Part shown: positions 13,844-36,583 of the stretch, in pieces
How positions within the stretch are numbered: the stretch's first letter is position 1
Layout of the letters: every line of letters begins with the position of its first letter
Assembly: GCA_963841015.1 (NCBI GenBank)
Contig: CAWJAX010000005.1
Coordinates: 533,855 to 597,854, forward strand
Direction of reading: 5' to 3'
Length of the DNA: 64,000 bases
DNA from: an uncultured Methanoregulaceae archaeon
Lineage (GTDB): Archaea > Halobacteriota > Methanomicrobia > Methanomicrobiales > Methanospirillaceae
Position numbers and translations under genes: made by a program
The notes under the pieces: model-generated
Databases searched by the model: none
Told to the model about the DNA's origin: nothing
Seen by the model: the letters and a program-made list of their open reading frames with translations, nothing else

Positions 13844-13845
13844 GT

Positions 13846-14613: not shown

Positions 14614-14620
14614 TATTTTA

Positions 14621-15256: not shown

Positions 15257-15263
15257 AATTTAT

Positions 15264-15732
15264 TTATCTTCCCTGAAGGATTACGGGTCTGGACTTGCTG
15301 GTAGGATCAGTAAGTCCGATGATCGTTTTGTCCGCGTCCGGGCCATACTTACAGTAATCGGAAAGTGATGGATCGGTCTTCATAAACCTGCCTTCCTGGA
15401 TATAGAAACTATAGTCCGTGAAGACTGGTTTGCACGCGGCTTGCAGTGCGGGTATGACGTCGCGGTTCTCAAGCTCGAGAAGTATGGTACCAACATGCAC
15501 CTGCAGTTCCAGATCCTCGTCCCCGACACGGATCGTCTTCCTCATGGTATGAGGATTGGCGAGTCCTTTGGCGGGTCCGTAGGTAATTGTTGCGGGAAGG
15601 CGTGGTCCGTTGAGGACCATGCGCCGGACTACCGGCAACAGAACAAATCTGGTTCAGCAGGCGCTCGGTCGTCTCGGGGTTAAGTAACCGCTCGGTGACA
15701 ATCCGGCACTGGGGGAACGTGGCTTCGGTCAT
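15264..15732 (-). CDS. mcrD: MCR operon protein D (frameshift near 15630)
   Basis: ERLLNPETTERLLN, then GPRLPATITYGPAKG...SDYCKYGP. Confidence 0.93.
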
Positions 15733-15751
15733 TCGTATCCGCTTTTGGGGC

Positions 15752-20018: not shown

Positions 20019-20020
20019 GA

Positions 20021-21337
20021 TTATGCTGCCCCCTTGAGCTGCCTGACCCGGTCGCGGACCTTGATTAAGAACTGCTCATCGGTGAGCATACCCTCGGGTG
20101 CATCGACGACCTTGCGGCAGTCAATGGGTACATTGTCCATACGATAGCAGTTCCCACCGGTTTCTACACCGTTGAATGCCACTGGCACATGCAGTTTTGA
20201 TACACCGCTGGTCGGTGTAAGGTGGGGATCAATGCAGACCGAGGGAATATGGGCGAATTGTTTGACGGCACTGATGGGGAAGTGGGCACCAGGATCACTG
20301 CCTATGGTGAACATGGCATCGATCTCACCGCGTACGAGCAGATCAATGGAGCTGGTCTCACCCGGGTTGTACCGGGCAAATCCTCTGGTCAGGTCCACGG
20401 AATACGGAAACCCGAACTGCCAGGCAAACACTTCGCCGGAGCCGGTCACATTGTAGTGACCCCTCATCGGCATGATCGAGAATTTTGTATATTCGTTGAG
20501 GTCTTTTGTGACGGCAATCGCTTCATCGATGTTATGGTTCTTGCCCAGAGACTGGGTTACTCCCATACCGAAGAAGATAATCCCGAAACGACCGCTCTTC
20601 ATCATGTCTGCGGCTTCCCGGATCTTCTCCTTGGGGATACCTGCAACAGTATCGGGAAGCCATTCTCCCCGGAAGGCAACGCGGAGTGCATTGAGCAGCT
20701 CATAATCTTTGCCCTGTTCTACCTGCAGGTGGACATCGGCGAGTTTGGCTGTATCAGTGACCCGGGGGTCAACAACAATCATTTTCCTGCTCATCTGTCC
20801 CTTACCGGTAAAGAATCCGCGGGGATAGATCGAGTACCGTGACATGTGCCGGGGGTGGGCGTGAACCGGGTTGCATCCCCAGAAAATGATCCGGTCTGCA
20901 CGGTTCTTGACCTCACCAAGGGTACAGGTCGGGAGACCGATATCCTGCACGGCAATGAGGGTTGTTCCATGGCAGACTGCAGCAGTATTGTCACAGCATG
21001 CCCGGGTGATTTCGGCAATCTCGTTCCCAACGCTCTGTGCTTCACAGTTGGTGGAGCTCCAGCCGTACATCAGGGGTTTTTTTGCCTTTGCCAGCATTTG
21101 TGCTGTGTACTCGACTGCATCGTCATAACTGACCTCTTTCCAGGTCCCGTCAGGCTGATGCATTCTTGGTCGGGTAACACGGTCCTTTGACTGGGAGTGC
21201 AGGAACTTCTCCGTCCCGATGACGCAGGCGTTGTAGACTTCGAGGAGCTGTTTTCCGTCATCGGATACAACCACTTCAAGGTCATCGCAAAGCGTCCCGC
21301 AGAAAGGACAAATGACATCCGGTATAGTCTTGGTCAT
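20021..21337 (-). CDS. fwdB: Formylmethanofuran dehydrogenase subunit B (Cys ligand)
   Basis: CPFCGTLCDD, AVCHG, MRGHYNV. Confidence 0.97.
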   Translation of the reverse strand: MTKTIPDVICPFCGTLCDDLEVVVSDDGKQLLEVYNACVIGTEKFLHSQSKDRVTRPRMHQPDGTWKEVSYDDAVEYTAQMLAKAKKPLMYGWSSTNCEAQSVGNEIAEITRACCDNTAAVCHGTTLIAVQDIGLPTCTLGEVKNRADRIIFWGCNPVHAHPRHMSRYSIYPRGFFTGKGQMSRKMIVVDPRVTDTAKLADVHLQVEQGKDYELLNALRVAFRGEWLPDTVAGIPKEKIREAADMMKSGRFGIIFFGMGVTQSLGKNHNIDEAIAVTKDLNEYTKFSIMPMRGHYNVTGSGEVFAWQFGFPYSVDLTRGFARYNPGETSSIDLLVRGEIDAMFTIGSDPGAHFPISAVKQFAHIPSVCIDPHLTPTSGVSKLHVPVAFNGVETGGNCYRMDNVPIDCRKVVDAPEGMLTDEQFLIKVRDRVRQLKGAA

Positions 21338-21338
21338 T

Positions 21339-21752
21339 TTATTTCACCCCGCATAATTTCTGCACCAGTTCAATGCCGAGAAGGATAGGTTCGTTCATCG
21401 CAACGTCGACTTTGACCGGAGTTCCTTTGAATGTTGGCATACCTGTTGAGTAGGTATTGGGGTCGATTATGGAATTTGCCCAGGGTCCCATGGGGATGAA
21501 CCCGACGCCCGGGTGTGGTCCCTGCGTGGTCTCGATAGCCTTCACGATAACGCTGCCATGATCGCTCGTGACTCTCACATTTGTATTTTTCCACGCCCCA
21601 AGTTTTTTCAAATCTGACGCATCAAGCTCGATGATCCCAGAGGCAGTGCGATAGAGGGGTTTTTCCTTACCGCCTTCAATCGCAACACCCTGCTGGATGC
21701 TCCGGCCTGATATCAGGTTCACGTTAATCGTTGCCACTGTATATTCCTCCAA
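21339..21752 (-). CDS. fwdD: Formylmethanofuran dehydrogenase subunit D
   Basis: GRSIQQG, FIPMGPWAN, TGMPTFKG. Confidence 0.95.
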   Translation of the reverse strand: MEEYTVATINVNLISGRSIQQGVAIEGGKEKPLYRTASGIIELDASDLKKLGAWKNTNVRVTSDHGSVIVKAIETTQGPHPGVGFIPMGPWANSIIDPNTYSTGMPTFKGTPVKVDVAMNEPILLGIELVQKLCGVK

Positions 21753-21882
21753 TAATCGGGTAATTTAAGCAAAACAATGTATCCTGCCCGCCATTACATA
21801 AATCCCACCATTGTGACAACGGCCTTTTTCAGCCATTGTAAAAATGGGATGGGGGGATAGCATTGCCACACTCCATACACCC

Positions 21883-22341
21883 TTATTTATTGAACTCCTT
21901 GATGGGGCTTGGTCCGAGTTCATTGATTGTTTTCACTACATCGGTGATGACGGCACCCCACTTGGCACCCTCGGATGCGGATACAAAGGTCATCCTGAAG
22001 CGGCGGTCATCAAGACCGATGCTCTTCATAAGGCGCTTGACCATGAACATACGCTTTGCACCTTTGTAGTTGCCTTCAAGATAATGGCAGTCACCGAAGT
22101 GGCAACCAGAGACAAGGACTCCATCTGCACCATCGGCAAATGCCTTGAGGACGAACAATGCATCAATACGTCCGGTACACATGACACGGACTACCCGGAC
22201 ATCTGGCGGGTACTGTATGCGGCCACCACCGGCAAGGTCTGCACCGGCATACGAGCACCAGTTACAGAGAATACCAAGTATTTTTGGCTGCCAGACTCCT
22301 GGCTCACGTTTTGGAATAGGGAATTCGGGTGCAGCTGACAT
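21883..22341 (-). CDS. mvhD: MvhD [2Fe-2S] subunit
   Basis: CNWCSYAGAD, VMCTGR, GCHFGDCHY. Confidence 0.96.
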   Translation of the reverse strand: MSAAPEFPIPKREPGVWQPKILGILCNWCSYAGADLAGGGRIQYPPDVRVVRVMCTGRIDALFVLKAFADGADGVLVSGCHFGDCHYLEGNYKGAKRMFMVKRLMKSIGLDDRRFRMTFVSASEGAKWGAVITDVVKTINELGPSPIKEFNK

Positions 22342-24467
22342 TACTGCTCACCTCCGAGCAGGAATGCATCGATCTGCGCCACGATCTGCGGGGTAGCAAA
22401 GTGATTCATCCAGATTGCCCCGCCGGGGCAGAAACCACCGCAGGTACCGCAACCCTTGCATTTGGCTTCGGTTACTTCCATAACTGTGCGACCATCCTTT
22501 TCTACAAGTGCAAGCGCACTGTAGGGACAGAGGCTGATGCACATACCGCAGCCTGCACACCGCTCTTCAATGCACATGGCAAAGTACGGCTCAAGTTCGA
22601 CCTCACCCGTGTGGATGGGGATACTTGCTGCAGATGCTGCACCTTCGGCAGATGCGACGGTATCAGGAATATCCTTTGGACCCTGGCAGACACCGGCAAG
22701 GAATACACCGGCAGTTGTCGTTCCGCAGGGGTTCAGCTTCGGGTGGGCTTCTAAGAGCCAGCCGTCCATTGAACAGGAAACCCCAAAGAGCTTGCGGGTC
22801 CTGTTGGTATCTGCTTTCGGCTGTACTGCCGCTGCAAGAACCACGAGATCGACTTCCATATCAACCGGTCGGTTCAGCAGGGTATCATCTGTATAGACAT
22901 GAAGGTTCTTGGTTGCCGGGTCCTCGAGTATGTTTGCAACACGCCCGCGGATGAACTTGGCACCCTCGTCCTGGATACGGTAATAGAACTCCTCGTACAT
23001 CTTACCGAACGAACGGATATCCATGTAGAAGAGATATGCCTGTACACCGGGTATCTTCTCATATATCTGGTGGGCGTGTTTTAAGGAATACATGCAGCAG
23101 AACCGCGAACAGTACGGTTTGCCATTGCCCGTGTTATCACGGGAGCCGGCACACAGCACGAAGGCGACTCTCTTGGGTGTTTCCCCGTCGCTTGGTCGTA
23201 CAAGGTGACCGCTGGTCGGACCGGATGCACAGATGAGGCGCTCAAACTCAAGGCTCGAGATGACATTTTCGAACTTCTTGTATCCCCATTCTGTTTTGTT
23301 CTCGACTGGGAACATGTCGTAACCCGTTGCGAGAATTGCTGTCCCGACTTTGACCTTGACAAATTCGTCCTTATCCTCAAGAACAATGGCATTCTTCTCG
23401 GGACCGCAGGCGGTAACGCACAGCCCGCATTTTATGCAGGAGTCAAAATCGATCGTGTAGAGAAGTGGTACAACCTGCGGGTGACTGATGTAGATTGCCT
23501 TTCGGGGCTTCATACCCACTTCGAAGTCATTGGGTTTGATAACCGGGCACGGTGCTTCACAGTCACCGCAGCCGTTACAGCCGCCACCGACCATACCTTT
23601 CGCTGCTGCATCCGCCATGGAGAGGACACCGCGTGCCTTCTTGCGGATGGTCACATCGAAGTTGCCGATGTAACCTTCGACTGAATCAACCTCTGAGTAG
23701 GTCATCAGCTCGATATTTGCGGCTCTGCCTACATCCACCATCTTTGGTGTTAAGATACACTGCGAGCAGTCGAGGGTCGGGAATGTCTTGTCCAGCTGGG
23801 ACATGCGCCCGCCAATGGTGGGGGATGATTCAATGAGGTAGGTCTTGATCCCTGCATTTGCGAGGTCAAGGGCTGCCTGCATACCGGCAACGCCGGCGCC
23901 GACTACCATCGCCGCGTGCTCAACCTTCACTGCCTTCGGGAACAGGTCCTGCAGGAGTGATGCTTTTGCGACCGCAATCCTGATAGCGTCTTTTGCCTTG
24001 TCTGTTGACCCTTCCTGGTCATGCATGTGCACCCACGAGTTCTGCTCGCGGATGTTTGCCATCTCAAACCGGAACGGGTTCAGGCCACCTTCTTTTGTTG
24101 CTGTCCTGAATGTTGGTTCGTGAAGACGTGGTGAACATGCTGCCACAACGACCCCGGTAAGGTTGTTGTCCTTGATTGCCTTGTTAATTACAGCCTGCCC
24201 GGGCATCGAGCACATATACTTGTAATTGTCAACATAGGCGACATTCGGGATGGTTTTTGCATATTCCCCCACGGCCTCGATATCCATGGAACCGGCAATG
24301 TTGGTACCGCAGTGACAGATAAAGACACCAACACGTGGCTGTTCTTTTGAGGTACTGCCGACTGATGGGGCTGCCTGCTTTTTGGCTTCCTGTTTTACGG
24401 GGGCTTCCTGTTTCTTTGCTTCCGTCTTTTTGGTAGTTGTTTTCTTCTTTTCGGCCATTATTCCCAC
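22341..24467 (-). CDS. hdrA: Heterodisulfide reductase subunit A
   Basis: FICHCGTNIAG, VVGAGVAG, DKTFPTLDCSQC, YCSRFCCMY, C-terminal ferredoxin. Confidence 0.97.
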   Translation of the reverse strand: MGIMAEKKKTTTKKTEAKKQEAPVKQEAKKQAAPSVGSTSKEQPRVGVFICHCGTNIAGSMDIEAVGEYAKTIPNVAYVDNYKYMCSMPGQAVINKAIKDNNLTGVVVAACSPRLHEPTFRTATKEGGLNPFRFEMANIREQNSWVHMHDQEGSTDKAKDAIRIAVAKASLLQDLFPKAVKVEHAAMVVGAGVAGMQAALDLANAGIKTYLIESSPTIGGRMSQLDKTFPTLDCSQCILTPKMVDVGRAANIELMTYSEVDSVEGYIGNFDVTIRKKARGVLSMADAAAKGMVGGGCNGCGDCEAPCPVIKPNDFEVGMKPRKAIYISHPQVVPLLYTIDFDSCIKCGLCVTACGPEKNAIVLEDKDEFVKVKVGTAILATGYDMFPVENKTEWGYKKFENVISSLEFERLICASGPTSGHLVRPSDGETPKRVAFVLCAGSRDNTGNGKPYCSRFCCMYSLKHAHQIYEKIPGVQAYLFYMDIRSFGKMYEEFYYRIQDEGAKFIRGRVANILEDPATKNLHVYTDDTLLNRPVDMEVDLVVLAAAVQPKADTNRTRKLFGVSCSMDGWLLEAHPKLNPCGTTTAGVFLAGVCQGPKDIPDTVASAEGAASAASIPIHTGEVELEPYFAMCIEERCAGCGMCISLCPYSALALVEKDGRTVMEVTEAKCKGCGTCGGFCPGGAIWMNHFATPQIVAQIDAFLLGGEQ

Positions 24468-24468
24468 C

Positions 24469-25386
24469 TCACAGCACCTTCTGCAGGAACGGTTCGCAGC
24501 TGATCCCGTGGAGGTCCAGCCCGAGGTCCTGCGGACTCATTCCCTGTGCCAGTCCGAGTAGTTCAGCAAAGTGCAGTACGGGTAAATTGTATGACACGCC
24601 AAACTTTTCCTGAATTTCAATCTGGCCACGGTCAAACTGGAGCTGACAGAACGGGCAGATGTCCGTAAGAGCGTCAACCTTCGCCTCTTTGAGGTTGATC
24701 AGCTTTTCGTTGGCGATGTCCAGCGCATGTACAATATCGTAGCCACGGACACCCCCACCGGCACCGCAGCACTGCATTTTATTGCGGTATTCGACCGGTG
24801 TTGCACCGATTGCAGCAACCAGCTCTTCCATCCACGTCGGGTGCTCGGTGTTCAGCATGACCTCATCTTCAAACTCCCGGTCTTTGTGGGGTTTTGTCAG
24901 GTGACAGCCATAGTGAACAGCGATACGTGCACCCGTGAGAGGGTTGGTCACGCTGGCGCGGACTTTCTCGACACCAATGAATTTGTCGTTGTAGAGAAGC
25001 TCGGCGGTATGGTAGACATTGATCGTGCCCTTGTACTCCATATCGATTTCTTTGAGCACTTCATTGACCCCATCACGGAGGTCCTTGTTGTGCTTGAGCT
25101 TGTGGTTGACTTCCCAGATCGATTTATAGCAGCCGTTGCAGACAAGAGCGATATCCATTTTCATCTGTTCAGCAAGGACAAGGTTGCGGGCTGCCATTGC
25201 GTAAAAGACATTGAGATCAATCGATCCAAAAGCACCTGGTGCGGGGCAGCAGCTTGCACCCTTGAGAGGAACCAGCTCAACGCCAAGTTTTTTCATGGCC
25301 TTGATGGAAGCGGATTCAACACCCGGGTAACGGTTGGGGGCGATACAGCCAAGATAGAATGCGAATTTGTGTTTTGCTTCTGACAT
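24469..25386 (-). CDS. hdrB: Heterodisulfide reductase subunit B
   Basis: Two CCG-type domains (SCCPAPG; CCGAGGG...CPFCQLQFD). Confidence 0.97.
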   Translation of the reverse strand: MSEAKHKFAFYLGCIAPNRYPGVESASIKAMKKLGVELVPLKGASCCPAPGAFGSIDLNVFYAMAARNLVLAEQMKMDIALVCNGCYKSIWEVNHKLKHNKDLRDGVNEVLKEIDMEYKGTINVYHTAELLYNDKFIGVEKVRASVTNPLTGARIAVHYGCHLTKPHKDREFEDEVMLNTEHPTWMEELVAAIGATPVEYRNKMQCCGAGGGVRGYDIVHALDIANEKLINLKEAKVDALTDICPFCQLQFDRGQIEIQEKFGVSYNLPVLHFAELLGLAQGMSPQDLGLDLHGISCEPFLQKVL

Positions 25387-25392
25387 GGTATC

Positions 25393-25974
25393 TTACCCCT
25401 CCCTTTCCTTGACAATCCGGTCGGCATTTGCTTTGAGTTTGTAGTGGTCCAGAATCTTCTGGATACCCTTGACGTATTCCGGATACATGTGGGTGGTCGG
25501 CGGGTCACGGGAAAGTCCAATCCTCTCGCGGGCAGCACGGTTCACATCATTGTTGGGCACACCGTGTCCTGAACTGTAAATCGCCTGCACGGTCTTGAGG
25601 AAGTTCACGGGAATGATGTCTCTCTTGAAGGCGAGATTCCTCATTGCCATAATGACATCTGTTGGTGCGATATCACGGGGGCATCTGTCAGTACAGCTGT
25701 AACACGTTGTGCAGAGCCAGAGATCCGGATCCGTGAGGGACTCGTTCTCGAGACCGAGCACCGCTCTCCTCATAAATTTTCGGATGCGGTACGTGCTCCG
25801 GGGAGCAGACGGGCACGATCCGGTACAGGTTCCGCACTGGTAGCACATATGGGCGATGGTGCGTGAGATTCCTTTCACGTTTTTCGTGAATTCCGGGTTT
25901 GCGTCATCATTGAAATATCGTTGGTCGCGGAGTTTCTTCTCCAGCGCTTCCGGGTAACCTTTTGATCTAACCAT
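25393..25974 (-). CDS. hdrC: Heterodisulfide reductase subunit C
   Basis: CYQCGTCTGSCP and WLCTTCYSCTDRCPR. Confidence 0.96.
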   Translation of the reverse strand: MVRSKGYPEALEKKLRDQRYFNDDANPEFTKNVKGISRTIAHMCYQCGTCTGSCPSAPRSTYRIRKFMRRAVLGLENESLTDPDLWLCTTCYSCTDRCPRDIAPTDVIMAMRNLAFKRDIIPVNFLKTVQAIYSSGHGVPNNDVNRAARERIGLSRDPPTTHMYPEYVKGIQKILDHYKLKANADRIVKEREG

Positions 25975-25983
25975 AGTACTCCC

Positions 25984-27174
25984 TCACGCCTTCTCCATTA
26001 CTTTGAGATTGACCTGTCCTTTCACGTCTTCTTTCACTTTTGAAGTTCGCTTCGTGAAAAGTTTCTCTTTTATCTTCTTGAACAGGTCTGTTTCCGTACC
26101 CTTTACGCGGACGCCGGTCCTCTGCATGACTATGATATCCTCACCGGGACATGCATTGACACAGGCACCGCACAGGATACAATAGTCCTTGTTAACGGCA
26201 ATGGTCGGCTCTACCACGCCCTTCATGTCGGCCGCAGGCTTTGCTGTCGGGAGATAGATCGCATTTGCCGGGCAGATTTCGATGCAGGTCGAGCAGCCTC
26301 CGGGACATTTCTCGGCATGGAACTCGATATCTCCTTCAAAAATCTTCTCAACCGTTATTGCCTCGGGCGGGCAGTTCCGCGAACACCACTGGCAGGTGCA
26401 GCAGTTGTCCTGGATAATGCTGACCTTTCCGTCAATTTTATCGCTGATAACTTCGCGCTCGACAGTGATGCACTCTTCGGGACATGCTTCAACACATACC
26501 TTGCACGCATCACATTTGGACTCTTCCCACGGGAGCCCGGTGACCGGGTCAGCAACTGACTCGACCTTTCCGGTTTCTGCGGTGAACTCCTTGTGTTTGA
26601 CGGTGATTGCCGGGCAGAGTGCGCCACAAATACCGCACAGCGAACATTTTTCCATATCGACTTTAAACGTCGTCTTGGTTTTGATCGCAGCCTGCCGGTC
26701 TTTTGCTCCGCTTACCGGTCCTTTATAGGTTCCTTCGTAGGCAGGGACGTTCCGGTCAATTGCATCACGGGGGCAGACCTCTTCACAGATCGTGCACCGG
26801 GTGCATTTCTCGTCATCAATCTCCGCCTTCATATCATATTGCGGGAACCCTTCCTTCTCAAGGATCGGAAGTTTCTCCTGTCCATCAACTTTCAGAGTCA
26901 ATGCATTGAACGGGCACATTACGACGCATACGCCGCAATACGAGCACTTGACCTCGTCAACATCGACCGGTGCAGCGTAATTGATTGCACCACGCCTTGA
27001 TGCACCGACGAGCCCGAGCACAATTGCTTCTTCGGGGCAAGCCTCGACACAGATACCACATCCTGTGCAGGTCTCTGAATTCAGAATGAGGTTGTTCACG
27101 CTCTGAAGGAGGCGCTGCTCCATTACAACGTTAACACCCTCTCGCTTTTTAGAAAACTTTGGAAACAATGCCAT
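25984..27174 (-). CDS. fwdF: Polyferredoxin FwdF
   Basis: About eight CxxCxxCxxxCP motifs; operon context. Confidence 0.9.
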   Translation of the reverse strand: MALFPKFSKKREGVNVVMEQRLLQSVNNLILNSETCTGCGICVEACPEEAIVLGLVGASRRGAINYAAPVDVDEVKCSYCGVCVVMCPFNALTLKVDGQEKLPILEKEGFPQYDMKAEIDDEKCTRCTICEEVCPRDAIDRNVPAYEGTYKGPVSGAKDRQAAIKTKTTFKVDMEKCSLCGICGALCPAITVKHKEFTAETGKVESVADPVTGLPWEESKCDACKVCVEACPEECITVEREVISDKIDGKVSIIQDNCCTCQWCSRNCPPEAITVEKIFEGDIEFHAEKCPGGCSTCIEICPANAIYLPTAKPAADMKGVVEPTIAVNKDYCILCGACVNACPGEDIIVMQRTGVRVKGTETDLFKKIKEKLFTKRTSKVKEDVKGQVNLKVMEKA

Positions 27175-27465: not shown

Positions 27466-27729
27466 TTTTTTTCACGCACCAGCTATGATCGATTTCAAAA
27501 ATCGACTATCAAAAAGTGGTCGAAGAAGATAGATAAATGTTCTGAAATAAGCCCATAAAAAAGGGGAATTTATTCAGGATTTTTAATTTTTATAAATATA
27601 CTCTTGAATCATGTTAATTTAAAAAAATTTACTCAATTCGCCATTTTCCATGCGCTGTATAAACCGGATTAAATTAGAAAATTTATTCAATAAACATCAT
27701 TGTACCTTTGTAGTACCGGAGGTTATCAA

Positions 27730-28614
27730 ATGGAAATCAACGGAGTTACTATTGATAATACGTACGCAGAGGCATTCCCGACCTGGGTCTGCCGTGTAAT
27801 CATCACTGCGGTGACGAAGGAATGGGCAGAGAAAGCAGCAACGGAAGCAACCGGATTTGCAACATCGTCTATTGGCTGCCCATGCGAGGCAGGAATTGAA
27901 GGATTTGTGCCGGCAAGTGAGACTCCCGATGGAAGACCGGGTGTTGCCATCCTGATCTGTGCCAGCAAGAAGAAACTCAAGGAACAGGTCGTGGAACGCC
28001 TTGCAGAATGTGTCCTCACTGCACCTACCACAGCAGTTTTTAACGGGATCACCAATGCAGAGGAAAAAATCCCGGTCAAGCTTCACTTCTTTGGTGATGG
28101 CTACGAATACCAGAAAGAGGTAGGCGGGAGAAAGTGCTGGGCTATTCCCATTATGCAGGGTGAATACGTTGGCGAAGAGGAGTTTGGCATCGTCAAGGGT
28201 GTTGCCGGCGGAAACTTCTTTGTGATGGGTGAGAACCAGATGGCAGCTCTCATGGGAGCAAAAGCTGCAGTTGACGCGATTGACAGGGTGCCGGGCACTA
28301 TCACGAGTTTCCCGGGTGGTATTGTCGGGAGCGGTTCAAAAGTGGGCAGCCTGAAATACAAGTTCATGATTGCTTCGACCAATGAGAAGTACTGTCCGAC
28401 ACTCCGGGAAAAAGTTGCTGACACCAAGGTCCCGGCTGGAATCAAGGCAGTCTATGAGATTGTTATTGACGGGATTGATGAGAAGTCTGTTGCAGCGGCA
28501 ATGGGAGCCGGTGTCAGGGCAGCTGTCATGGTTCCGGGCGTGAAGTTCATCTCTGCTGGAAACTTTGGCGGTACTCTTGGACCATTTAAGATTGATCTGC
28601 ACAAAGTGCTCTGA
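27730..28614 (+). CDS. ftr: Formylmethanofuran:H4MPT formyltransferase
   Basis: MEINGVTIDNTYAEAF, TPDGRPG, GVAGGNF, SAGNFGG. Confidence 0.97.
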   Translation: MEINGVTIDNTYAEAFPTWVCRVIITAVTKEWAEKAATEATGFATSSIGCPCEAGIEGFVPASETPDGRPGVAILICASKKKLKEQVVERLAECVLTAPTTAVFNGITNAEEKIPVKLHFFGDGYEYQKEVGGRKCWAIPIMQGEYVGEEEFGIVKGVAGGNFFVMGENQMAALMGAKAAVDAIDRVPGTITSFPGGIVGSGSKVGSLKYKFMIASTNEKYCPTLREKVADTKVPAGIKAVYEIVIDGIDEKSVAAAMGAGVRAAVMVPGVKFISAGNFGGTLGPFKIDLHKVL

Positions 28615-28918: not shown

Positions 28919-29815
28919 ATGACGAACATCCCTGAACCGTATGTCATACACTACCCGCGGATTGTGGCAGTAGCTGATGAAGCAGGCAGTCATGTGGAGC
29001 TCATTGAGTTCTTTGACTGTGTTGGCGGGGCAATGTGGTCAAAGCACCACTATGCCCAAAGCCCGGTGGTAAAAAATGTCCGCTGTGTTGGCCAGACCAT
29101 GCGGTACCTCTTAACCACGGGTACCGTGGACCTTGCTCTTGAAGGATCCAGGTTTCCGGCCGGTATCTCCTCGTGCATTGTCGAAAAATCTGAGATCGCT
29201 GTCACCTACATCGGAATGGGTGGGGGCGGGGTAGGTGCAGCAGCATGCCGTTCTGATGCAGCTGGTGTCCTGCGGAGCAGGTGCGATGAATCCGGGGGTG
29301 GGAAAGTTGCCGGTTCCACGATATGGCTGCCCCGCATGCAGCGGGTTCTCATTGGTGTCGATGATACTGATACCCCTGACGAGGGAGCCACGTGGACGCT
29401 TGTCCATAATATTGCAAAAGCGGTTGAGGATGAGCATTCGGTATACCTCTCGCACACGATAGTCCAGCTCTTCCCGGTGCCGTACCGTACCAAGAACTGT
29501 GTGAGTCTTGTGGCAGAGTTCGCGACAACGGATACCAAGGGACTGACAGAAAGGTTCCGGCAACTCCTCGAACGGTACACTCTCTCCCAAAAAACGGGGA
29601 TGGCAGTCTATACCGGGTTTACACTCTCAGAAAAACTGCTTGAATACGGGCGAAATGTCAAACGGGGAGAGATTAAACCGGGAGTGCTCGGAGGCCTGGA
29701 TGACAAAAACCTGCAGATAATACTGGATGGCAGGGGCATAATCGGGGCGGTTGCCGCCATCCCTTTTTACACCCGGTACGAGGAGGCGCTGGAATTATGC
29801 AGTGGACGGACCTGA
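28919..29815 (+). CDS. mmp11: Methanogenesis marker protein 11 (TiaS-like/DUF1743 C-terminal domain)
   Basis: VELIEFFDC, Y.GMGGGGVGA, IGVDDTD...GATW, QLFPVPYRTKNC. Confidence 0.85.
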   Translation: MTNIPEPYVIHYPRIVAVADEAGSHVELIEFFDCVGGAMWSKHHYAQSPVVKNVRCVGQTMRYLLTTGTVDLALEGSRFPAGISSCIVEKSEIAVTYIGMGGGGVGAAACRSDAAGVLRSRCDESGGGKVAGSTIWLPRMQRVLIGVDDTDTPDEGATWTLVHNIAKAVEDEHSVYLSHTIVQLFPVPYRTKNCVSLVAEFATTDTKGLTERFRQLLERYTLSQKTGMAVYTGFTLSEKLLEYGRNVKRGEIKPGVLGGLDDKNLQIILDGRGIIGAVAAIPFYTRYEEALELCSGRT

Positions 29816-30766
29816 AAGCCCGGCTTCTGGCGGTTGGTCAGGCACACCTGACCGGTGAACCGGCAGAAAACTATATCGCCCGTTCAGCTGCAGGTACCCG
29901 GTGCCGGTGGCAGCGGTGCAGTTTTTTTTGCCATGGGAAGTCACCGGGTCAAGCTTGCGCTCAGCCCGGTAAGCAGTATCGAGATTGCACACCGTGGCAA
30001 CGGAACTGCCGATCTGTTCTTTGAAGGACAGAAAATCTCCGGACACCTGCTGGAACCCGGGTTCCATTGCCCTGATCAGGCTTTTATCACCGTGACCGGC
30101 AGCTGCATTTTTTCCTGCAGCTATTGTTCCGTCCCCCGGATCGGGGGAAAACGCAAGACCATCAAAGAGATCACAGCGATGGTGGAATCGGTACGTGACC
30201 ATATCCATGCAATCTCCATAACAAGCGGGGTCCTCACGAGCATTGAAGAAGAAGAGGCCTATGTTCTTGAAGTGGTAAAACACCTCGCTTCGTTTAACCT
30301 GCCTGTTGGTGTCTCCATCTACCCGACCACAACGACACCCGACCGGTTAAAGGAGCTGGGCGTGGCTGAGGTGAAATTCAATCTCGAAGCGGCAACCCCG
30401 GAACTGTTTTCTCAGATGTGCCCGGGTCTGGATTACGGGGTACTCTGGCAGGTACTGGATCGCTCGGTGAAGCTGTTCGGGAAAAACCGTGTCTTTTCCA
30501 ATGTCATCATAGGCCTGGGGGAGACTGATGCGGAGCTGGAAACCTGTATCCAGAAGCTGACAGCGCTCGGGGTGATTCCGGTTCTGCGCCCACTCAATCC
30601 GGTAGCCGGGCTTGCAGGCTCACCACGGCCATCTGCACAACGGCTGATGAAAATCTTTGCCATACATGCACGGGCTCTTGACCAGGCTGGTCTTGATCCA
30701 AAACTTGCAGTTACGATGTGCACGAATTGTGCAGGTTGTGATCTCGTGCCGGGGAGGGACCAATGA
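29797..30766 (+). CDS. Radical SAM protein, biotin-synthase-related (frameshift near 29896)
   Basis: CIFSCSYC; NVIIGLGETD; additional C-terminal CTNCAGC; N-terminus MQWTDLKARLL in another frame. Confidence 0.85.
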
Positions 30767-32034
30767 AAGGGGTTGACGTAATCACCCGGGCAATCCTTGC
30801 CTGCACCGACCGGCAGTATACCGTGCCGGGTTTTCCCATCACTGAGCTTGGTGAGCGGACAGGAGCGGAACTGGTGATCAACGAGAAGACTGCGCTGGAA
30901 TATGCACTCGGGGATTCCCTCTCTGGCAGGAGGGCCGCGGTTATCATCAAAAATGTCGGGGTGAACGCGTGTGCCGATCCCCTGCTCCAGGCAACAGCGC
31001 AGGGGCTCATAGGGGGGGTGATCCTTGTAGCCGGGGATGACCCGGAAGCAAAAGGTTCACAGACCTCCCAGGACTCACGCTACTTCGGGGAGCTTGCGGA
31101 ACTCCCGGTGATAGAACCGGATGAAACCACCTGTTATGCCGGTGTGGAGGCGGCGCTTGAAGCCTCCGAGGAGTTCTCCCGGGTAGCCATGCTCCGCCTG
31201 ACACCACAGATCCTGGAACAGGAGGTAACAGGTAATCCTGTTCCCCGGAATGACCGGCGAGGGAGGCTCTCCGACCGGACCTGGACTATGAACGGCAGGG
31301 TCACTGCAGCAGAGGAGCTGTACCGCACGATGTTTGCCTGGTCAGACCGGTCAGCCCTGAACCAGTGGAAGGGAGAACCCGCCGGTGTTGGTGCAGCAGA
31401 GGGGAATACCCGGATAGTGACCGTGAATCCTCTGCCGTTGCAGGCTGCCGGGATGCACAATGTGCATGAACAGGGCCGGACCTTTGTCCGTGACCACCGT
31501 GGTATCCAGCCACCGCTTCCCCAGAAACGCCCCCAGGCGATGGAGGACCGCGGATACTACCGCACATTCTGCACCTCATGCCCGTTTAAACCCTTCATGA
31601 ATATCGTAAAGGAACGGAACATGAAGATGATCTGCGATGCCGGGTGTTCCGTGCTGGGAATGAATCCGCCGTATGATCTGGGTGTGGCAAGTTATGGTAT
31701 GGGTGCGAGCATCGCGGTAGCCGCACGGAGTACGCAGGTTGCCCTTATCGGTGATTATGCCCTCCTGCACTCCGGTCTGAACGCACTCATCGATGTCTAT
31801 GAGAAGCGGCTCCCGCTGCTCTGCATAGTAATGAATAACAAATGCACCGCAATGACCGGCAAACAGCCGGCCTATAATCCTGTGCCCTATATCCGCTGGG
31901 CAGACCCGGTTATCTGCAGTGCCGATGACGAACCGATGCTGAAACAGGAGCTTGTGGTCACGGACAGGCCGCGAACGCTGGTGATTGAAGGGACCTGTCC
32001 GGGAGGAAGCAGCCATGAAACCGTGGAATATTGA
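30763..32034 (+). CDS. ThDP-dependent enzyme, truncated IorA-like
   Basis: TVPGFP, INEKTALEYA, AGDDP...SQ..QDSR, FCTSCP, GDYALLHSG...NN; no C-terminal ferredoxin domain. Confidence 0.85.
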   Translation: MKGVDVITRAILACTDRQYTVPGFPITELGERTGAELVINEKTALEYALGDSLSGRRAAVIIKNVGVNACADPLLQATAQGLIGGVILVAGDDPEAKGSQTSQDSRYFGELAELPVIEPDETTCYAGVEAALEASEEFSRVAMLRLTPQILEQEVTGNPVPRNDRRGRLSDRTWTMNGRVTAAEELYRTMFAWSDRSALNQWKGEPAGVGAAEGNTRIVTVNPLPLQAAGMHNVHEQGRTFVRDHRGIQPPLPQKRPQAMEDRGYYRTFCTSCPFKPFMNIVKERNMKMICDAGCSVLGMNPPYDLGVASYGMGASIAVAARSTQVALIGDYALLHSGLNALIDVYEKRLPLLCIVMNNKCTAMTGKQPAYNPVPYIRWADPVICSADDEPMLKQELVVTDRPRTLVIEGTCPGGSSHETVEY

Positions 32035-33143
32035 GATATGTGATGTAACGCTCAGAGACGGAGAACAGACACCGGGAGTATCATTTTCCTGTGAGGAAAA
32101 GGTGAGGATTGCCCGGATGCTGGATACCATCGGGATTGAGGTGATCGAGGCCGGGTTTCCTGCAGTATCCCCCCACGAAAAGGAGTGCGTAAAGGCCGTT
32201 GCGAACCTCGGGCTCGACTGCCCGTATCTGCGGGTTTGCACGCGCCCGGGAAGCAGATGTTGCAACAGCGATAGACTGCAATGTGGACATGGTAAGCATC
32301 TTTATCCCGACATCCGAGCTGCATGTCCGGCTCAAATTCAAAAAAACGCGGGAGCAGGTGCTTGACGATGCACTCGGGATTATTGATTATGCCACGGATC
32401 ACGGTGTTCAGGTGCGGTTTGCAGCCGAAGATGCGTCCCGGACGGATCTTCCCTTCTTAAAAGAGGTGTACCGTCGTGCGTCAGAGCACGGTGCAGTGCT
32501 GCTGAGCTTTGCCGACACCGTTGGCTGCCTGATCCCGACCGAAATGCAGCGGGTCATGACCGAACTGGTTGCATCGGTGGACAAACCGCTCTGTGCTCAC
32601 TGCCATAACGATATGGGCTGTGCGGTCGCAAATACGATTACCGCTGCAGAAGCCGGGGCTTTCCAGCTGCATACAACGGTAAACGGGATCGGGGAGCGGG
32701 CTGGCAATGCATCCCTGGAAGAAGTGCTTGTAGCCCTGCGGATGAAAGGGGGTATTGATCGGTACGATCTCTCACACCTGACGGAACTCTCCCACATGGT
32801 CGAAAAATTCTCCGGCATCACGCTCCCGAGGAACAAGCCCGTCACCGGCGAACTCGCGTTCTCGCACGAAAGTGGTATCCACATCGCGGCAATTCTTGAA
32901 GACCCGTCCTCGTACGAATACTTCCCGCCCGATATGGTCGGGAGCGAACGCAGGTTCATTCTCGGGAAACATACAGGTAAGAAAGCGCTTGAACATGTAG
33001 TGGCATCGATTGGCTGCGAACTTACCGAAAAACAGGTCTGCCGGGTTCTTGACCTTGTCAAGGACAAATCAGAGCATAAATGCAACATCACCCCGGATGT
33101 CTTAAAAAAACTGATCCGGAAAGCAAAAGAGGAGAATGCCTGA
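32015..33143 (+). CDS. aksA: Homocitrate synthase family (frameshift near 32218)
   Basis: DVTLRDGEQTPG, HCHNDMG, GIGERAGNA, HESGIH; no LeuA regulatory domain. Confidence 0.85.
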
Positions 33144-34357
33144 TGGGGACATTATCAGAAAGGATCCTTCACGGGACTGCGGGAGAGTATGTTGACCGGG
33201 CCATCGACCGGGCGTATGTCCATGACGGCACCGGGGTACTTACTCTTGAAGCCTGGAAGAGTATGGGAGAGCAGAGGATACAGGATGCGTCACATATTCA
33301 CGTCCTTTTCGATCATATCGTGCCGGCAAACAACAGCACAACTGCGACTCTCCAGCACGAGCTGCGTGAGTTCGCCCGCAGTTCGTTCCTGCATTTTTCT
33401 GATATCGGGAGTGGGATCTGTCACCAGATCATGAGCGAGGGGATAGTGCTCCCGGGTGAAGTCGTGGTCGGCGCTGATTCCCACAGCTGCACGCTCGGGG
33501 CCTTCGGTGCATTTGCCACGGGTGTCGGTGCAACGGATATGGCAGCGATCTGGATGACCGGGGAGACATGGTTCCGGGTTCCGGAATCAACAGGGATGCA
33601 CCTTTCCGGAACCTTTACTGGTGCCGCCGAGGCAAAAGACCTTGCACTTACCTATGTCAGCAAACTCGGTATGGACGGTGCCAGCTACCAGGCTCTGGAA
33701 TTTATTGGTGAAGGCACAGCTGCCCTGCCCATGGACGACCGGCTCACGCTCTGCAACCTTGCTGTTGAGACCGGTGCCAAGGCCGGAATGTTCTATGCAG
33801 ATGCTATAACCGTGCAGTATCTTGCAGCGGCAGGTCACACGGTAAAACCCCAGACGCCGGAGCCTTGCAGGTATATCCGGGAGCTGGATTTCGATCTTTC
33901 CGATATTGTCCCGGTCATTGCTGTGCCTCCAAGGGTGGACACCGTAAAACCCGTGCATGATCTCGCCGGGCTGCCGCTCGATCAGGTTTTTGTGGGTACC
34001 TGCACAAACGGCCGCTACACGGATCTTGCACGGTTCGCACGGGTTGTGAAAGGGAAAAATGTTGCAATCCGCACTATCATTGTTCCGGCTTCCCGTGCCG
34101 TGCTGCAGGAAGCACTCCGGACCGGGGTACTTGCTGATCTTGTGGCGGCCGGATGCACTATCGGAACCCCGGGCTGCGGTCCCTGCCTTGGAGCCCATAT
34201 GGGTGTACTGGGCGAAGGGGAGGTCTGCCTGTCAACAGCAAACCGCAACTTCAAAAACCGGATGGGTGTTGGCGGGGAGATTTTCCTGTCCTCCGTTGCC
34301 ACGGCCGCAGCCAGTGCACTTGAAGGAGAAATAACCGAGCCGGAGGCGGGCCCATGA
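33143..34357 (+). CDS. aksD: Homoaconitase large subunit
   Basis: HDGT, GICHQ, GADSH, GTCTNGR, CGPCLG, NRNFKNRMG. Confidence 0.85.
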   Translation: MGTLSERILHGTAGEYVDRAIDRAYVHDGTGVLTLEAWKSMGEQRIQDASHIHVLFDHIVPANNSTTATLQHELREFARSSFLHFSDIGSGICHQIMSEGIVLPGEVVVGADSHSCTLGAFGAFATGVGATDMAAIWMTGETWFRVPESTGMHLSGTFTGAAEAKDLALTYVSKLGMDGASYQALEFIGEGTAALPMDDRLTLCNLAVETGAKAGMFYADAITVQYLAAAGHTVKPQTPEPCRYIRELDFDLSDIVPVIAVPPRVDTVKPVHDLAGLPLDQVFVGTCTNGRYTDLARFARVVKGKNVAIRTIIVPASRAVLQEALRTGVLADLVAAGCTIGTPGCGPCLGAHMGVLGEGEVCLSTANRNFKNRMGVGGEIFLSSVATAAASALEGEITEPEAGP

Positions 34358-34824
34358 TGGGAAAAGGGCGGGCTGTCTGCGTCGGTGCAGATATTGACAC
34401 GGATCTTGTAATCGCCGGGCGCTACCTGCGGACAAAGGATCATAGTCTCTGGGTTGCACACGTGTTCGAAGATCTCGATCCAACGCTCGCCAGCCGCCTG
34501 AACGGTGCCGTGATCGTGGCAGGAAAAAATTTTGGCTGCGGTTCCTCCCGGGAACAGGCAGCGATTGCCATCCATGAGGCCGGCGTGGTTGCCGTGGTGG
34601 CACCATCCTTTGCCCGGATATTTTTCCGGAATGCAATCAATGTCGGGCTCCCGCTTATTGAATGTAATCTCTTCTGCACAGAGGGAAGTCTCGTGACGTT
34701 CGACCTTGCAGAAGGATGGGTTGAGGCAGAGGGTAAGAAGTATACCACCTGCCCGCTCTCTCCACGGATGCAGGAGATCCTTGCAGCGGGCGGCCTCGTC
34801 AACTACTGGAGGTCCGGCAGATGA
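34354..34824 (+). CDS. aksE: Homoaconitase small subunit
   Basis: IDTD...YLRT loop typical of homoaconitase; GKNFGCGSSREQA. Confidence 0.85.
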   Translation: MMGKGRAVCVGADIDTDLVIAGRYLRTKDHSLWVAHVFEDLDPTLASRLNGAVIVAGKNFGCGSSREQAAIAIHEAGVVAVVAPSFARIFFRNAINVGLPLIECNLFCTEGSLVTFDLAEGWVEAEGKKYTTCPLSPRMQEILAAGGLVNYWRSGR

Positions 34825-35621
34825 TCTTTCCGGAACAGTGCAAGCAGGTCGGGTATGCTGCAACAAAACCCTGCGGTGACAAGGTCTATTTCCTGAGCCG
34901 CTACCTGGTGCGGGACACGGGTGACGGGTATGAGCTGCTCGAAATCACGCTTGATTCTGCAGGGAAAGGTCTGATGCGTACAATTGTGGCGTCCAACGTG
35001 GTCGCAACTGCAAAGGAAACGTACCGTTACCCCGAAAAAGTGCAGATCCATGACCGCACGCGACTTATCAGGCTTGCACGGGATACGGGCTTTCGCTGCA
35101 CGATCTTTACCGGGCTTGACGAACATATGACGTTCGTGCTTGACCCTGATATCTCCGGGCTGCTTGAGATCCATGTTTATGATGTAGCGCCTCCCCGCCC
35201 GAGTCTCTCTTCCTGTATCCGGGAGCTGGAGTCTGACGGGCTCTTTGGGGATCTTTCGGTCACGTTCTGCCACCATACCCGCGATATCACGCAGGTCCAG
35301 GCGGATGTCTACCCCTGTCGTGCCGCAGGGTATACCCGTACGCTCGATGCCGACCCGATGCAGGGGGGGGAACGGGTAGCCGGGTGCCAGACAGGTTCAC
35401 AGTTCTACACCGAATGCTACGGGAAGGACTTTGCGCTTGAGAATATCTGCCCGCTGGAATCCGTGCAGGAGGAACCGTTCATAGCCCGTTGTTGTCGCTC
35501 CGAACGTGCAGGTACAGGGATCTCTAAAGGGAAGTTTGGAGCCGTAGTCCACTGGGGTGCAAATCCGGCACAGATCGCCCGTGCGGTGAATGATCTGGCA
35601 GTGGAGTGGAGGAAGCAATGA
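34821..35621 (+). CDS. Cys-rich protein of unknown function
   Basis: 266 aa, ATGA overlaps with both neighbours; YPC, GC, ICP and RCCR motifs. Confidence 0.85.
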   Translation: MIFPEQCKQVGYAATKPCGDKVYFLSRYLVRDTGDGYELLEITLDSAGKGLMRTIVASNVVATAKETYRYPEKVQIHDRTRLIRLARDTGFRCTIFTGLDEHMTFVLDPDISGLLEIHVYDVAPPRPSLSSCIRELESDGLFGDLSVTFCHHTRDITQVQADVYPCRAAGYTRTLDADPMQGGERVAGCQTGSQFYTECYGKDFALENICPLESVQEEPFIARCCRSERAGTGISKGKFGAVVHWGANPAQIARAVNDLAVEWRKQ

Positions 35622-36583
35622 CCCGGATCGCGATTGTTGAAGGTGATGGTATCGGCCATGAGGTGATCCCGGTTGCACAACAGGCTCTTGAACTGCTCCA
35701 TCCCGAATACGAATTCTTCGCAGTTGATGTCGGGTACCACCGCTGGGAACAGACCGGATGCCCGTGTGCAGATCACGATATTGCGGAACTGAAGACCGCA
35801 GATGCAATCCTCTTTGGTGCGATCACGACACCCCCGATGAAGGATTACCAGAGCGTAGTGCTGCGGCTGAGAAAAGCGCTCGATCTCTACGCAAACCTGC
35901 GGCCGGTCAAAGGGAACGGGTTCGATATCATGATCGTGCGGGAAAATACCGAAGGACTCTATTCCGGTATCGAACAGGTCAGCAATGACCGGGCAACAAC
36001 CCTCCGGGTGGTGTCCCGGCGGGGTACTGAGCGGATCGTGCGTGCTGCAATCCGGCTCGCACTACGGCGGAGCGGCAGGCTGACTATCGGACATAAGGCA
36101 AATGTGCTCAAATCCGATGTATTGTTCCGTGACATCTGCCTTGCCGAAGCGAAAGCAGCGGGTGTTTCCTGCAATGACAAATACATCGACGCTCTCGCGC
36201 TGGACATCCTCCAGCATCCCGCGTCGTATGATGTCGTTGTCACGACGAACATTTTCGGGGACATCCTTTCAGACGTGGCTTCGTATCTTGTCGGGGGACT
36301 GGGGCTGGTGCCCAGTGCCAATATCGGTGACCACCATGCCCTTTTTGAACCTGTGCATGGGAGTGCCCCGGATATTGCCGGCAAAAATATCGCCAACCCG
36401 ATCGCTGCCCTGCGGAGTGCAGGCATGCTCCTTACCTATTGTAATGATCCATCAGGATCAGGGAGGATCGAAGAAGCAATACAGGAAGTACTTGCAGAAG
36501 GCATCCGGACCCGGGATCTTGGTGGTTCAGCCGGGACCCGTGAGTTCGGGAATGCGGTGCTCCGCAGGCTCCAAAAAATATAA
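35618..36583 (+). CDS. aksF: Homoisocitrate/isopropylmalate-family dehydrogenase
   Basis: GDGIGHEV, RENTEGLY, HKANVLK, NIFGDILSD, EPVHGSAPDIAG. Confidence 0.85.
   Translation: MTRIAIVEGDGIGHEVIPVAQQALELLHPEYEFFAVDVGYHRWEQTGCPCADHDIAELKTADAILFGAITTPPMKDYQSVVLRLRKALDLYANLRPVKGNGFDIMIVRENTEGLYSGIEQVSNDRATTLRVVSRRGTERIVRAAIRLALRRSGRLTIGHKANVLKSDVLFRDICLAEAKAAGVSCNDKYIDALALDILQHPASYDVVVTTNIFGDILSDVASYLVGGLGLVPSANIGDHHALFEPVHGSAPDIAGKNIANPIAALRSAGMLLTYCNDPSGSGRIEEAIQEVLAEGIRTRDLGGSAGTREFGNAVLRRLQKI

Follow-up and report, generated by a model that had tools for sequence, protein, structure and literature searches.

Every turnover of methyl-coenzyme M reductase needs coenzyme B (CoB), and AksA, AksD/E and AksF, as established for the Methanocaldococcus jannaschii enzymes, lengthen 2-oxoglutarate to 2-oxosuberate on the way to it. 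For the CoB steps after 2-oxosuberate, we know of no genes assigned since the labelling work of around 1990. Which enzymes finish the cofactor? We address this question at an eight-gene operon in a window of 64,000 nucleotides from an uncultured Methanoregulaceae archaeon (contig CAWJAX010000005.1, positions 533,855 to 597,854; G000:C5:533855-597854 in our codes), by whose coordinates positions are given below. The operon joins aksA, aksD, aksE and aksF to four extra genes: mmp11 (g1), a radical S-adenosylmethionine (SAM) protein gene (g2), an IorA-like thiamine diphosphate (ThDP) protein gene (g3) and a DUF7714 gene (g7). We conclude that the cluster is probably the CoB biosynthesis operon of a Methanoregula species. 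The case for this is good for the DUF7714 and ThDP genes, plausible for mmp11 and weaker for g2.

An earlier, sequence-only reading of this DNA had held that the late CoB steps are unassigned and that the four extra genes supply some of them. The former statement agrees with our literature searches and with a 2025 paper that calls the CoB pathway unknown and suggests COG1900 proteins for it (PMC12068725). Section 14.5 of PMC3087415 lists the Aks steps alone for CoB synthesis. Our literature searches, with subscription journals and supplements outside their range, found no connection of CoB with mmp11, DUF7714, an XcbA homolog or an IorA-like gene.

The g7 protein matches PF24830 over positions 1-280 of 280 against a gathering cut-off of 25 bits (Table 1), and of 31 relatives 30 have DUF7714. 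In hhalign, a profile built from 18 archaeal DUF7714 sequences aligned with Xaut_5070, the XcbA of Xanthobacter autotrophicus Py2, at a probability of 98.6% (E 8.8e-16, 237 columns). Five cysteines are invariant across eight DUF7714 and three XcbA sequences, and PP, Y and V-W positions are also common to them. Searching plasmids with DUF7714 by tblastn returned four full- or near-full-length homologs (E 2e-10, 1e-7, 6e-7 and 1e-4), from Methylocystis (two records), Mycolicibacterium chubuense NBB4 and Nocardioides JS614. Three bacterial regions were inspected, one of them the weak Xanthobacter match; in these the XcbA-like gene has phosphosulfolactate synthase as its direct neighbour and the two lyase-family genes of the coenzyme M (CoM) cluster close by, and a gene for a pyridoxal phosphate (PLP)-dependent enzyme is annotated in two of the three.

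In Xanthobacter, XcbA is a [2Fe-2S] protein with nine cysteines that reduces sulfoethanethioaldehyde to CoM, and it is reported as having no known homolog (PMC9457059). By profile comparison g7 is an XcbA homolog, yet not a member of the XcbA family by the NCBI rule; this DUF7714-XcbA relationship is new here. Homology to a thioaldehyde reductase therefore gives concrete chemistry to a protein that the sequence-only reading had left as a cysteine-rich unknown: in its aks context, DUF7714 would reduce the thioaldehyde of 7-oxoheptanoate to 7-mercaptoheptanoate. The AlphaFold model of DUF7714 (predicted local distance difference test, pLDDT, 89) had no Foldseek match in the PDB at E <= 0.001, and VIA gave generic alpha/beta matches alone, the best at Z 7.8 over residues 114-266.

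One of the bacterial loci is of interest for its own sake. The Methylocystis iwaonis plasmid NZ_CP143315.1 (L046, 189767-202558) carries a full xcb-like CoM cluster in a methanotroph, in which an XcbA homolog is accompanied by phosphosulfolactate synthase, a PLP enzyme and two lyase-family genes. Next door on the opposite strand lies an MSMEG_0568-family radical SAM and nitrilase cluster; the same radical SAM family weakly matches g2.

The step before the thioaldehyde would start from 2-oxosuberate, for which g3 is the natural candidate on the evidence of its sequence, whether by plain decarboxylation or by a cluster-involving reaction. At 40 bits, g3 exceeds the 21.9-bit cut-off of PF02775, and the ThDP motif is kept in 16 of 16 g3-type sequences. 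When aligned with the IorA of its own genome and 15 relatives, g3 shows the ThDP motifs and the four proximal [4Fe-4S] cysteines, and no counterpart of the C-terminal 2x[4Fe-4S] ferredoxin domain of that IorA; a middle domain of some 90 aa is missing as well from the Methanomicrobiales g3. Its 156 bits on the IorA model TIGR03336, against a cut-off of 650.9, place it outside the IorA family. No iorB or IorB-like partner lies beside g3 in the operon, and phmmer of g3 against PDB sequences returned nothing.

Gene order ties these two genes to the aks pathway. Family (f), genome (G) and locus (L) names below are analysis codes. The eight-gene order is identical in 12 of 12 order-level loci from six families. 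It is also colinear in all 60 Methanoregula-type loci with at least 7.8 kb downstream of mmp11, taken from the best 80 of 559 species-level stretches in an mmp11-alignment search, all 80 of them Methanoregula-type; the other 20 are colinear as far as their sequence extends. Because the order is kept in 12/12 and 60/60 loci, the arrangement exceeds chance.

Outside the order Methanomicrobiales, the operon comes apart along recurrent lines. Five other families contributed 14 loci, and in every one of them DUF7714 directly adjoins aksE, aksF or both; in five of the 14 a g3-type gene stands beside a divergently oriented aksA. Of 20 genomes outside the order compared around mmp11, 10 have a g3-type gene next to it, five have a g2-like radical SAM gene there and five have neither. 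Adjacency of mmp11 and g3 is complete in f7 (37/37), f24 (8/8) and f30 (1/1), and in f14 the two are adjacent or at most 4.5 kb apart in 11 of 15. In f10 they are unlinked, and there the distance between g3 and DUF7714 is at most about 6 kb in 20 of 23 genomes. Since these pairwise links persist after rearrangement, the gene groups form a chain of recurring neighbours (mmp11-g3, g3-aksA and DUF7714-aksE/F) that is fused into one operon in Methanomicrobiales. The synteny check that the sequence-only reading had proposed thus came out in its favour within the phylum: several independent rearrangements have left DUF7714 and g3 linked to aks genes.

DUF7714 and g3-type genes also have one common family distribution across a sample of 301 genomes from the window's phylum. 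Profiling covered this phylum and named controls, with M. jannaschii as the sole genome from the other methanogen groups (Methanococcales, Methanobacteriales, Methanomassiliicoccales and others). McrA (TIGR03256, E <= 1e-20) occurs in 179 of the 301 genomes, 138 of them over the cut-off, mmp11 over its cut-off in 150 and DUF7714 in 135. By family, DUF7714 is found in f1-f6 (47/47), f7 (37/37), f10 (23/24), f14 (15/15), f24 (8/8), f28 (2/2), f30 (1/1) and f34 (1/1), and in this sample it was not found in f8 (0/46), f12 (0/5), f15 (0/38), f16 (0/4) or any remaining family. With a single g3 protein as query and E <= 1e-30, just 53 of the 301 genomes matched and f7 homologs were missed, since this limit loses matches that are split; g3 counts therefore come from a profile search. 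On that profile, g3-type proteins (open reading frames, ORFs, of about 490-620 aa) score 515-721 bits and occur in the same families as DUF7714, and true IorA paralogs (about 600-650 aa) score about 300-327 bits and are the sole kind in f8, f9, f12 and f15. The shortened Methanomicrobiales form of g3 scores lower or splits. The exception is f28, with a weak partial g3 match in one of its two fragmented genomes. In the Methanosarcina acetivorans control, mmp11, McrA and DUF7714 are all present.

Intermediate g3-like forms occur in f19 and f31. Three intermediate g3-like proteins (G058:C1:1767811-1769229, G216:C50:5003-6418 and G248:C1:3097-4572) score 343-362 bits on the g3 profile from ORFs of 493-512 aa; their genomes are without McrA, and they are neither of the g3 type nor of the IorA type.

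For the first part of the pathway, homology, the loop of the small subunit and the presence of separate leu paralogs all suggest chain building to 2-oxosuberate by the operon's own aks genes. Where the small-subunit loop of the LeuD-like paralog in this genome reads GRFLTIYD, that of aksE reads GRYLRTKD, and a YLRT loop reportedly marks homoaconitase rather than isopropylmalate isomerase (Jeyakanthan et al., 2010). Separate leuA/cimA-like and leuCDB-like copies lie elsewhere in the genome. The aks proteins exceed the cut-offs of the subfamily models TIGR02086 (aksD) and TIGR02087 (aksE) and stay under those of the methanogen equivalogs (HacA_Meth 413 against 550, HacB2 157 against 230, AksF2_Meth 327 against 540). 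Identity to AksF says little in f8, where all 10 genomes tested have one AksF-like copy at 45-48% identity: it does not discriminate there, because the copy is present with mmp11 (five genomes) or without it (five). A 45% AksF match in G073 can therefore not be read as an aks pathway. No close AksF homolog was found in two f12 and two f15 genomes, from families without DUF7714 and g3, which is suggestive only, given how little AksF identity discriminates in f8.

The third extra gene, mmp11, carries a domain with a known biochemical precedent. Its TIGR03280 match spans positions 1-291 of 292, and Pfam finds TiaS_TCKD (PF22641, 5.6e-12) and TiaS_FLD; a PDB profile search returned TiaS entries at 6e-12 to 3.5e-7. 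The predicted model (pLDDT 87) matched TiaS 3amt_A at 1.1e-7 in Foldseek and at Z 19.3 in VIA (150 residues, rmsd 2.1), with a wide gap to the next VIA matches. All 14 sequences compared keep a DDTD motif (G-x-DDTD) and the threonine that corresponds in the alignment to Thr18 of TiaS. Both sequence and model thus identify the C-terminal half of mmp11 as a TiaS-type TCKD kinase domain, an assignment that is new here. The N-terminal stretch of about 140 aa is a distinct domain with an invariant glycine-rich loop, and no structural match to it was found in the lists. A separate, weaker TiaS-like gene, 24% identical, lies at C3:384488-385306.

In TiaS, ATP phosphorylates a carbonyl oxygen, which an amine then displaces, and the enzyme also phosphorylates its own Thr18. 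CoB synthesis reportedly needs an ATP-dependent amide bond to threonine and then a phosphorylation (White, 1994). The fit of mmp11 to these threonine steps, judged from its sequence and predicted fold, is suggestive.

The radical SAM protein g2 is harder to place. It reaches 55.7 bits on PF04055 against a cut-off of 29.5. A comparison of 17 radical SAM proteins shows C84, C88 and C91, as well as a C-terminal CxxCxxC motif, in every one of them. It falls below the cut-offs of LipS2 (68 against 270), BioB (31 against 225) and LipA (23 against 310), and variant_rSAM is also sub-threshold. The nearest solved chains are BioB 1r30 (6.8e-6) and LipA 5exi (4.6e-3). The general radical SAM family includes a second copy in this genome (C2:222764-223648), single copies in four of five other genomes tested and two copies in the fifth. 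Among the neighbours of this wider family there was no conserved partner besides a small ORF of about 110 aa. That ORF, which has no NCBIfam match, lies on the same strand 3' of the general-family gene in three distant genomes (L148:10692-11039, L143:10468-10800 and L142:8789-9124).

In four other lineages mmp11 is paired with radical SAM genes that form a third, distant clade in a 17-protein tree. Because the clades differ, mmp11 pairs repeatedly with a radical SAM gene of this kind, not always the same one. The two genes form a two-gene operon, overlapping or abutting in either order, at L032:8523-11496, L033:8284-11417, L035:9566-11573 and L043:8491-10512. These loci come from G073, G091 and G248, which are without an McrA match, and from G040 (L035), which has McrA. 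Next to the pair stand a divergent thioredoxin-reductase-like gene (L032, L033), a class-V aminotransferase (L043) or an AIRS-domain gene (L035).

Taken together, these data suggest the following route. AksA, AksD/E and AksF would convert 2-oxoglutarate to 2-oxosuberate, which g3 would decarboxylate to 7-oxoheptanoate. Sulfur would then be added to the aldehyde, and DUF7714, as an XcbA-type iron-sulfur thioaldehyde reductase, would reduce 7-thioxoheptanoate to 7-mercaptoheptanoate. With ATP and its TiaS-type kinase domain, mmp11 may carry out one or both of two steps, activation of the carboxylate for the threonine amide and phosphorylation of the threonine hydroxyl. Least clear is what g2 does; most likely it works with mmp11 or supplies sulfur. 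Such a route would be limited to lineages with DUF7714 and g3, and other users of CoB would have to carry out the late steps differently.

Several observations weigh against this assignment. On the XcbA family model NF052538, g7 scores 59 bits (E 4.5e-16, positions 38-289 of 293), below the cut-off of 150, and plain tblastn of DUF7714 against Xanthobacter XcbA (pXAUT01) gave just E = 6. White's labelling work is said to have found the decarboxylation of 2-oxosuberate to be non-oxidative, and g3, because it retains all four redox-cluster cysteines, fits oxidative chemistry better. The operon copies of g2 form their own clade on a long stem of the 17-protein tree, as a Methanomicrobiales-specific paralog, and only one f14 genome has the wider-family gene close to aks or mmp11. 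No DUF7714 match was found in the M. jannaschii control, although mmp11 and McrA are present there. Within the phylum sample, DUF7714 and g3-type genes were not found in the McrA-bearing f8 genus g21 (five genomes), f12 (five) and f16 (three with McrA), nor in f15 (33 of 38 with divergent McrA), f20, f29 and f32; f12 and f29 have no mmp11, nor do almost all f15 genomes. Conversely, mmp11 is above its cut-off in 10 genomes without an McrA match at E <= 1e-20, eight of them in f8 (G073, G253, G083, G091, G098, G229, G288 and G298) and the others G085 and G248. The 'marker' in its name presumably reflects the idea that TIGR03280 occurs solely in methane-metabolising archaea, a restriction that these 10 genomes contradict; because it is found in them, the job of mmp11 need not be specific to CoB. 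Finally, COG1900 proteins (MMP16, L-ASST) are proposed for the same aldehyde-to-thiol step (PMC12068725), and this genome has one COG1900 gene (C3:450953-451966).

The phyletic profiling that the sequence-only reading had also proposed therefore went partly against it within the phylum, as none of the four extra genes is universal among McrA-bearing genomes. From this patchy distribution it follows that at least two solutions for the late CoB steps must exist. As for its central proposal, that the four extra genes supply late steps, it is well supported for DUF7714 and g3, through their aks linkage, common distribution and the XcbA homology. For mmp11 the tie to g3 and the TiaS-type ATP-using domain speak in favour and the McrA-less genomes against. 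For g2 it is not supported as stated, the gene being a lineage-specific paralog and partner radical SAM genes standing with mmp11 in McrA-less genomes too.

Three other explanations have to be set against a CoB operon. The mmp11 and radical SAM genes could be a separate module that makes or modifies another thiol or small molecule, one found in some non-methanogens too, and that was fused to aks in Methanomicrobiales, with only g3 and DUF7714 acting in CoB synthesis. We consider this unlikely overall, and a serious rival for those two genes. It would account for mmp11 in the 10 McrA-less genomes, for its absence from McrA-bearing f12 and almost all of f15, for the abutting or overlapping pairs with diverse neighbours at L032, L033, L035 and L043, and for the CxxCxxC motif kept in all 17 radical SAM proteins. 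It sits poorly with the constant adjacency of mmp11 to a g3-type gene in f7, f24 and f30, g3 elsewhere standing beside aksA, and with genus g21 of f8, where strong mmp11 and McrA occur in precisely the same five genomes. Moreover, CoB reportedly calls for both an ATP-dependent ligation and a phosphorylation (White, 1994), and mmp11 is the sole ATP-using candidate in the operon.

The extra genes could instead serve other pathways, DUF7714 reducing the CoM thioaldehyde, g3 converting 2-oxosuberate by oxidative decarboxylation to a pimeloyl thioester for biotin and g2 acting like BioB, which we judge improbable. The known substrate of XcbA is indeed the CoM thioaldehyde (PMC9457059), g3 keeps oxidoreductase-type cluster cysteines, and the nearest solved relative of g2 is biotin synthase. 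Against this, DUF7714 adjoins aksE or aksF at every locus examined, both within the order and at the 14 outside it. No CoM gene turned up there when the operon proteins were used in tblastn, the remaining neighbours not being annotated. The genome holds no bioB above the cut-off (best 47 bits against 225), g2 itself reaches just 31 bits on the BioB model, and g3 has no IorB-like partner in the operon; in M. acetivorans, moreover, MMP16 is the primary CoM synthase (PMC12068725). Least probable is that the four genes merely hitch-hike in a methanogenesis island and have no function in common. The operon does lie inside a dense island of methanogenesis genes, and conserved order inside one archaeal order could be simple inheritance, but at least five other families, in which the gene groups lie far apart, show the pairwise links again despite rearrangement, and DUF7714 and g3 have one phyletic pattern. 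A CoB operon, with roles best anchored for DUF7714 and g3, is the explanation that we favour.

In this assembly aksA is read in two frames through one extra base near 32219. The base is missing from all eight relatives that aligned (of 11 offered). Contigs assembled from four public runs over 31900-32600 all lack it wherever they bridge the site, one of them, of 803 nt, being otherwise identical. Because both the relatives and the bridging contigs are without the extra base, the frameshift is an assembly error and the gene is intact in nature; the same evidence rules out a real pseudogene or a programmed frameshift. Among the best 80 Methanoregula-type loci, aksA is in two frames in one other (L081). 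The assembly (five contigs, 94% completeness) also splits mcrA, mcrB and a leuC-like gene by frameshift. The mcrA ORF at 12893-13843 spans just model positions 1-300 of 548, the mcrB ORF at 15930-16703 just positions 149-303 of 433, and the leuC-like gene (C4:75113-76295) is split across two frames. Split essential genes suggest that the assembly probably holds many indel errors. Sediment metatranscriptome contigs (run X15) cover 31969-32572, the g3/aksA junction and the first part of aksA; they hint at expression, prove neither transcription nor a single transcript, and are not counted as evidence.

ORF positions and Pfam and NCBIfam matches bear out the eight same-strand genes as the sequence-only reading had named them (Table 1). 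Genes overlap at six of the seven junctions, with ATGA at g2/g3, g5/g6, g6/g7 and g7/g8, TGATG at g4/g5 and a 20-nt overlap at g3/g4; at g1/g2 a 39-nt gap intervenes. The mmp11 ORF starts with TTG at 28901, its first ATG being at 28919; the aksD ORF opens at 33080, with the ATG at 33143 as likely start; and the aksF ORF opens at GTG 35606, with an ATG at 35618 that overlaps the g7 stop codon. Family matches upstream likewise place the operon beside ftr, hdr/fwd and mcr, as had been read.

Table 1. Genes of the operon and its upstream neighbours, in window coordinates.
Feature	Description	Position	Strand	Family match
mmp11 (g1)	methanogenesis marker protein 11	28919..29815	+	TIGR03280 344.4 bits, cut-off 255.8
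g2	radical SAM protein, BioB/LipA-like type	29855..30766	+	Radical_SAM PF04055 9e-15
g3	IorA-like ThDP protein	30763..32034	+	TPP_enzyme_C PF02775 4.5e-10; partial TIGR03336 match
aksA (g4)	homocitrate-synthase type	32015..33143	+	HMGL-like and HCS_D2, split across two frames
aksD (g5)	homoaconitase large subunit, aconitase family	33143..34357	+	NF001614 485 bits and TIGR02086 472 bits, both above cut-off
aksE (g6)	homoaconitase small subunit, YLRT loop	34354..34824	+	TIGR02087 163 bits, cut-off 109
g7	DUF7714	34821..35621	+	PF24830 303 bits
aksF (g8)	homoisocitrate-type dehydrogenase	35618..36583	+	Iso_dh PF00180 307 bits; TIGR02088 380.5, cut-off 409.8
ftr	formylmethanofuran--tetrahydromethanopterin (H4MPT) formyltransferase; upstream neighbour, outside operon	27700..28614	+	NF002554 445 bits, TIGR03119 404 bits
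hdrABC and fwd	with polyferredoxin (hdrCBA, fwdBA); upstream of operon	18312-27174		
mcr	upstream of operon	~12151-16703		

Some McrA-bearing lineages in the sample have a different complement of these genes. The five f12 genomes (G036, G047, G057, G067 and G076) have a canonical McrA of about 1000 bits and are without mmp11, DUF7714 and a g3-type gene. In f15, 33 of 38 genomes have a divergent McrA and neither DUF7714 nor a g3-type gene, and mmp11 is nearly always absent. In the f16 genome G040, two McrA-like matches (911 and 872 bits) stand in tandem, 264 bases apart, at C1:831970-835505.

The cluster and its rearranged forms amount to a short, testable list of genes and, for one of them, to a specific predicted reaction borrowed from a characterised bacterial enzyme. 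A bolder reading, which we hold tentatively and rate as rather doubtful, is that XcbA-type reductases were an ancient archaeal invention for CoB, borrowed by alkene-oxidising bacteria for CoM; that mmp11 has the first TiaS-type kinase domain acting on a small molecule, with the chemistry known from tRNA (an oxygen is phosphorylated and displaced by an amine, and a threonine hydroxyl is phosphorylated) serving both to attach threonine to 7-mercaptoheptanoate and to phosphorylate it; and that, with the cluster-bearing ThDP decarboxylase, DUF7714-bearing methanogens have a complete late CoB pathway here. If so, a second CoB route would be expected in M. jannaschii-type methanogens and in McrA-bearing families without these genes. 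Should the step assignments proposed above be right, the bacterial CoM and archaeal CoB pathways would have an enzyme in common, which would qualify a fully independent origin; a path to CoB in other hosts, needed for heterologous methane or alkane enzymes, would open, and there would be methanogen-specific targets for methane mitigation.

How does the proposed pathway compare with systems already known? Its chain-building enzymes belong to the same three families as M. jannaschii AksA, AksD/E and AksF, with the YLRT loop in the aksE small subunit, although the operon proteins score below the NCBIfam methanogen equivalog cut-offs. With TiaS, the tRNA(Ile2) agmatidine synthetase (3amt, 3amu, 4rvz, 3u02), mmp11 has the TCKD fold in common over residues of about 140-295. 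It is shorter, at about 300 aa against about 420, and Pfam gives TCKD and FLD alone, no search having been aimed at OB or zinc-ribbon domains; the full TiaS architecture includes RNA-binding OB-fold and zinc-ribbon domains.

Like IorA, the indolepyruvate:ferredoxin oxidoreductase alpha subunit, g3 has Pyr/PP motifs, the ThDP-binding stretch G-D ... N ... MTGGQ, and the CxxC, DxGC and C-terminal cysteine by which the 2-oxoacid:ferredoxin oxidoreductase superfamily binds its proximal [4Fe-4S] cluster; unlike it, the g3 type separates cleanly on its own profile, with the score ranges given above. g2 resembles the sulfur-inserting radical SAM enzymes BioB, LipA and LipS2 in its CxxxCxxC motif, and its further conserved cysteines, which form a C-terminal CxxCxxC motif, could hold a second cluster.

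In the archaeal CoM pathway of ComDE and MMP16/ComF, a ThDP enzyme likewise decarboxylates a 2-oxoacid to an aldehyde, from which the thiol is then made (PMC12068725); the likeness to g3 and DUF7714 is one of logic alone, with no homology claimed, MMP16 being a COG1900 protein. The closest counterpart of DUF7714 is XcbA, the last enzyme of bacterial CoM synthesis. DUF7714 differs in being archaeal, at 23-28% identity, in neighbouring aks genes rather than xcbB-E, and in its presumed substrate, a C7 carboxylate thioaldehyde in place of sulfoethanethioaldehyde. The two proteins are similar in size, and the gene of each lies in a cluster for a thiol cofactor.

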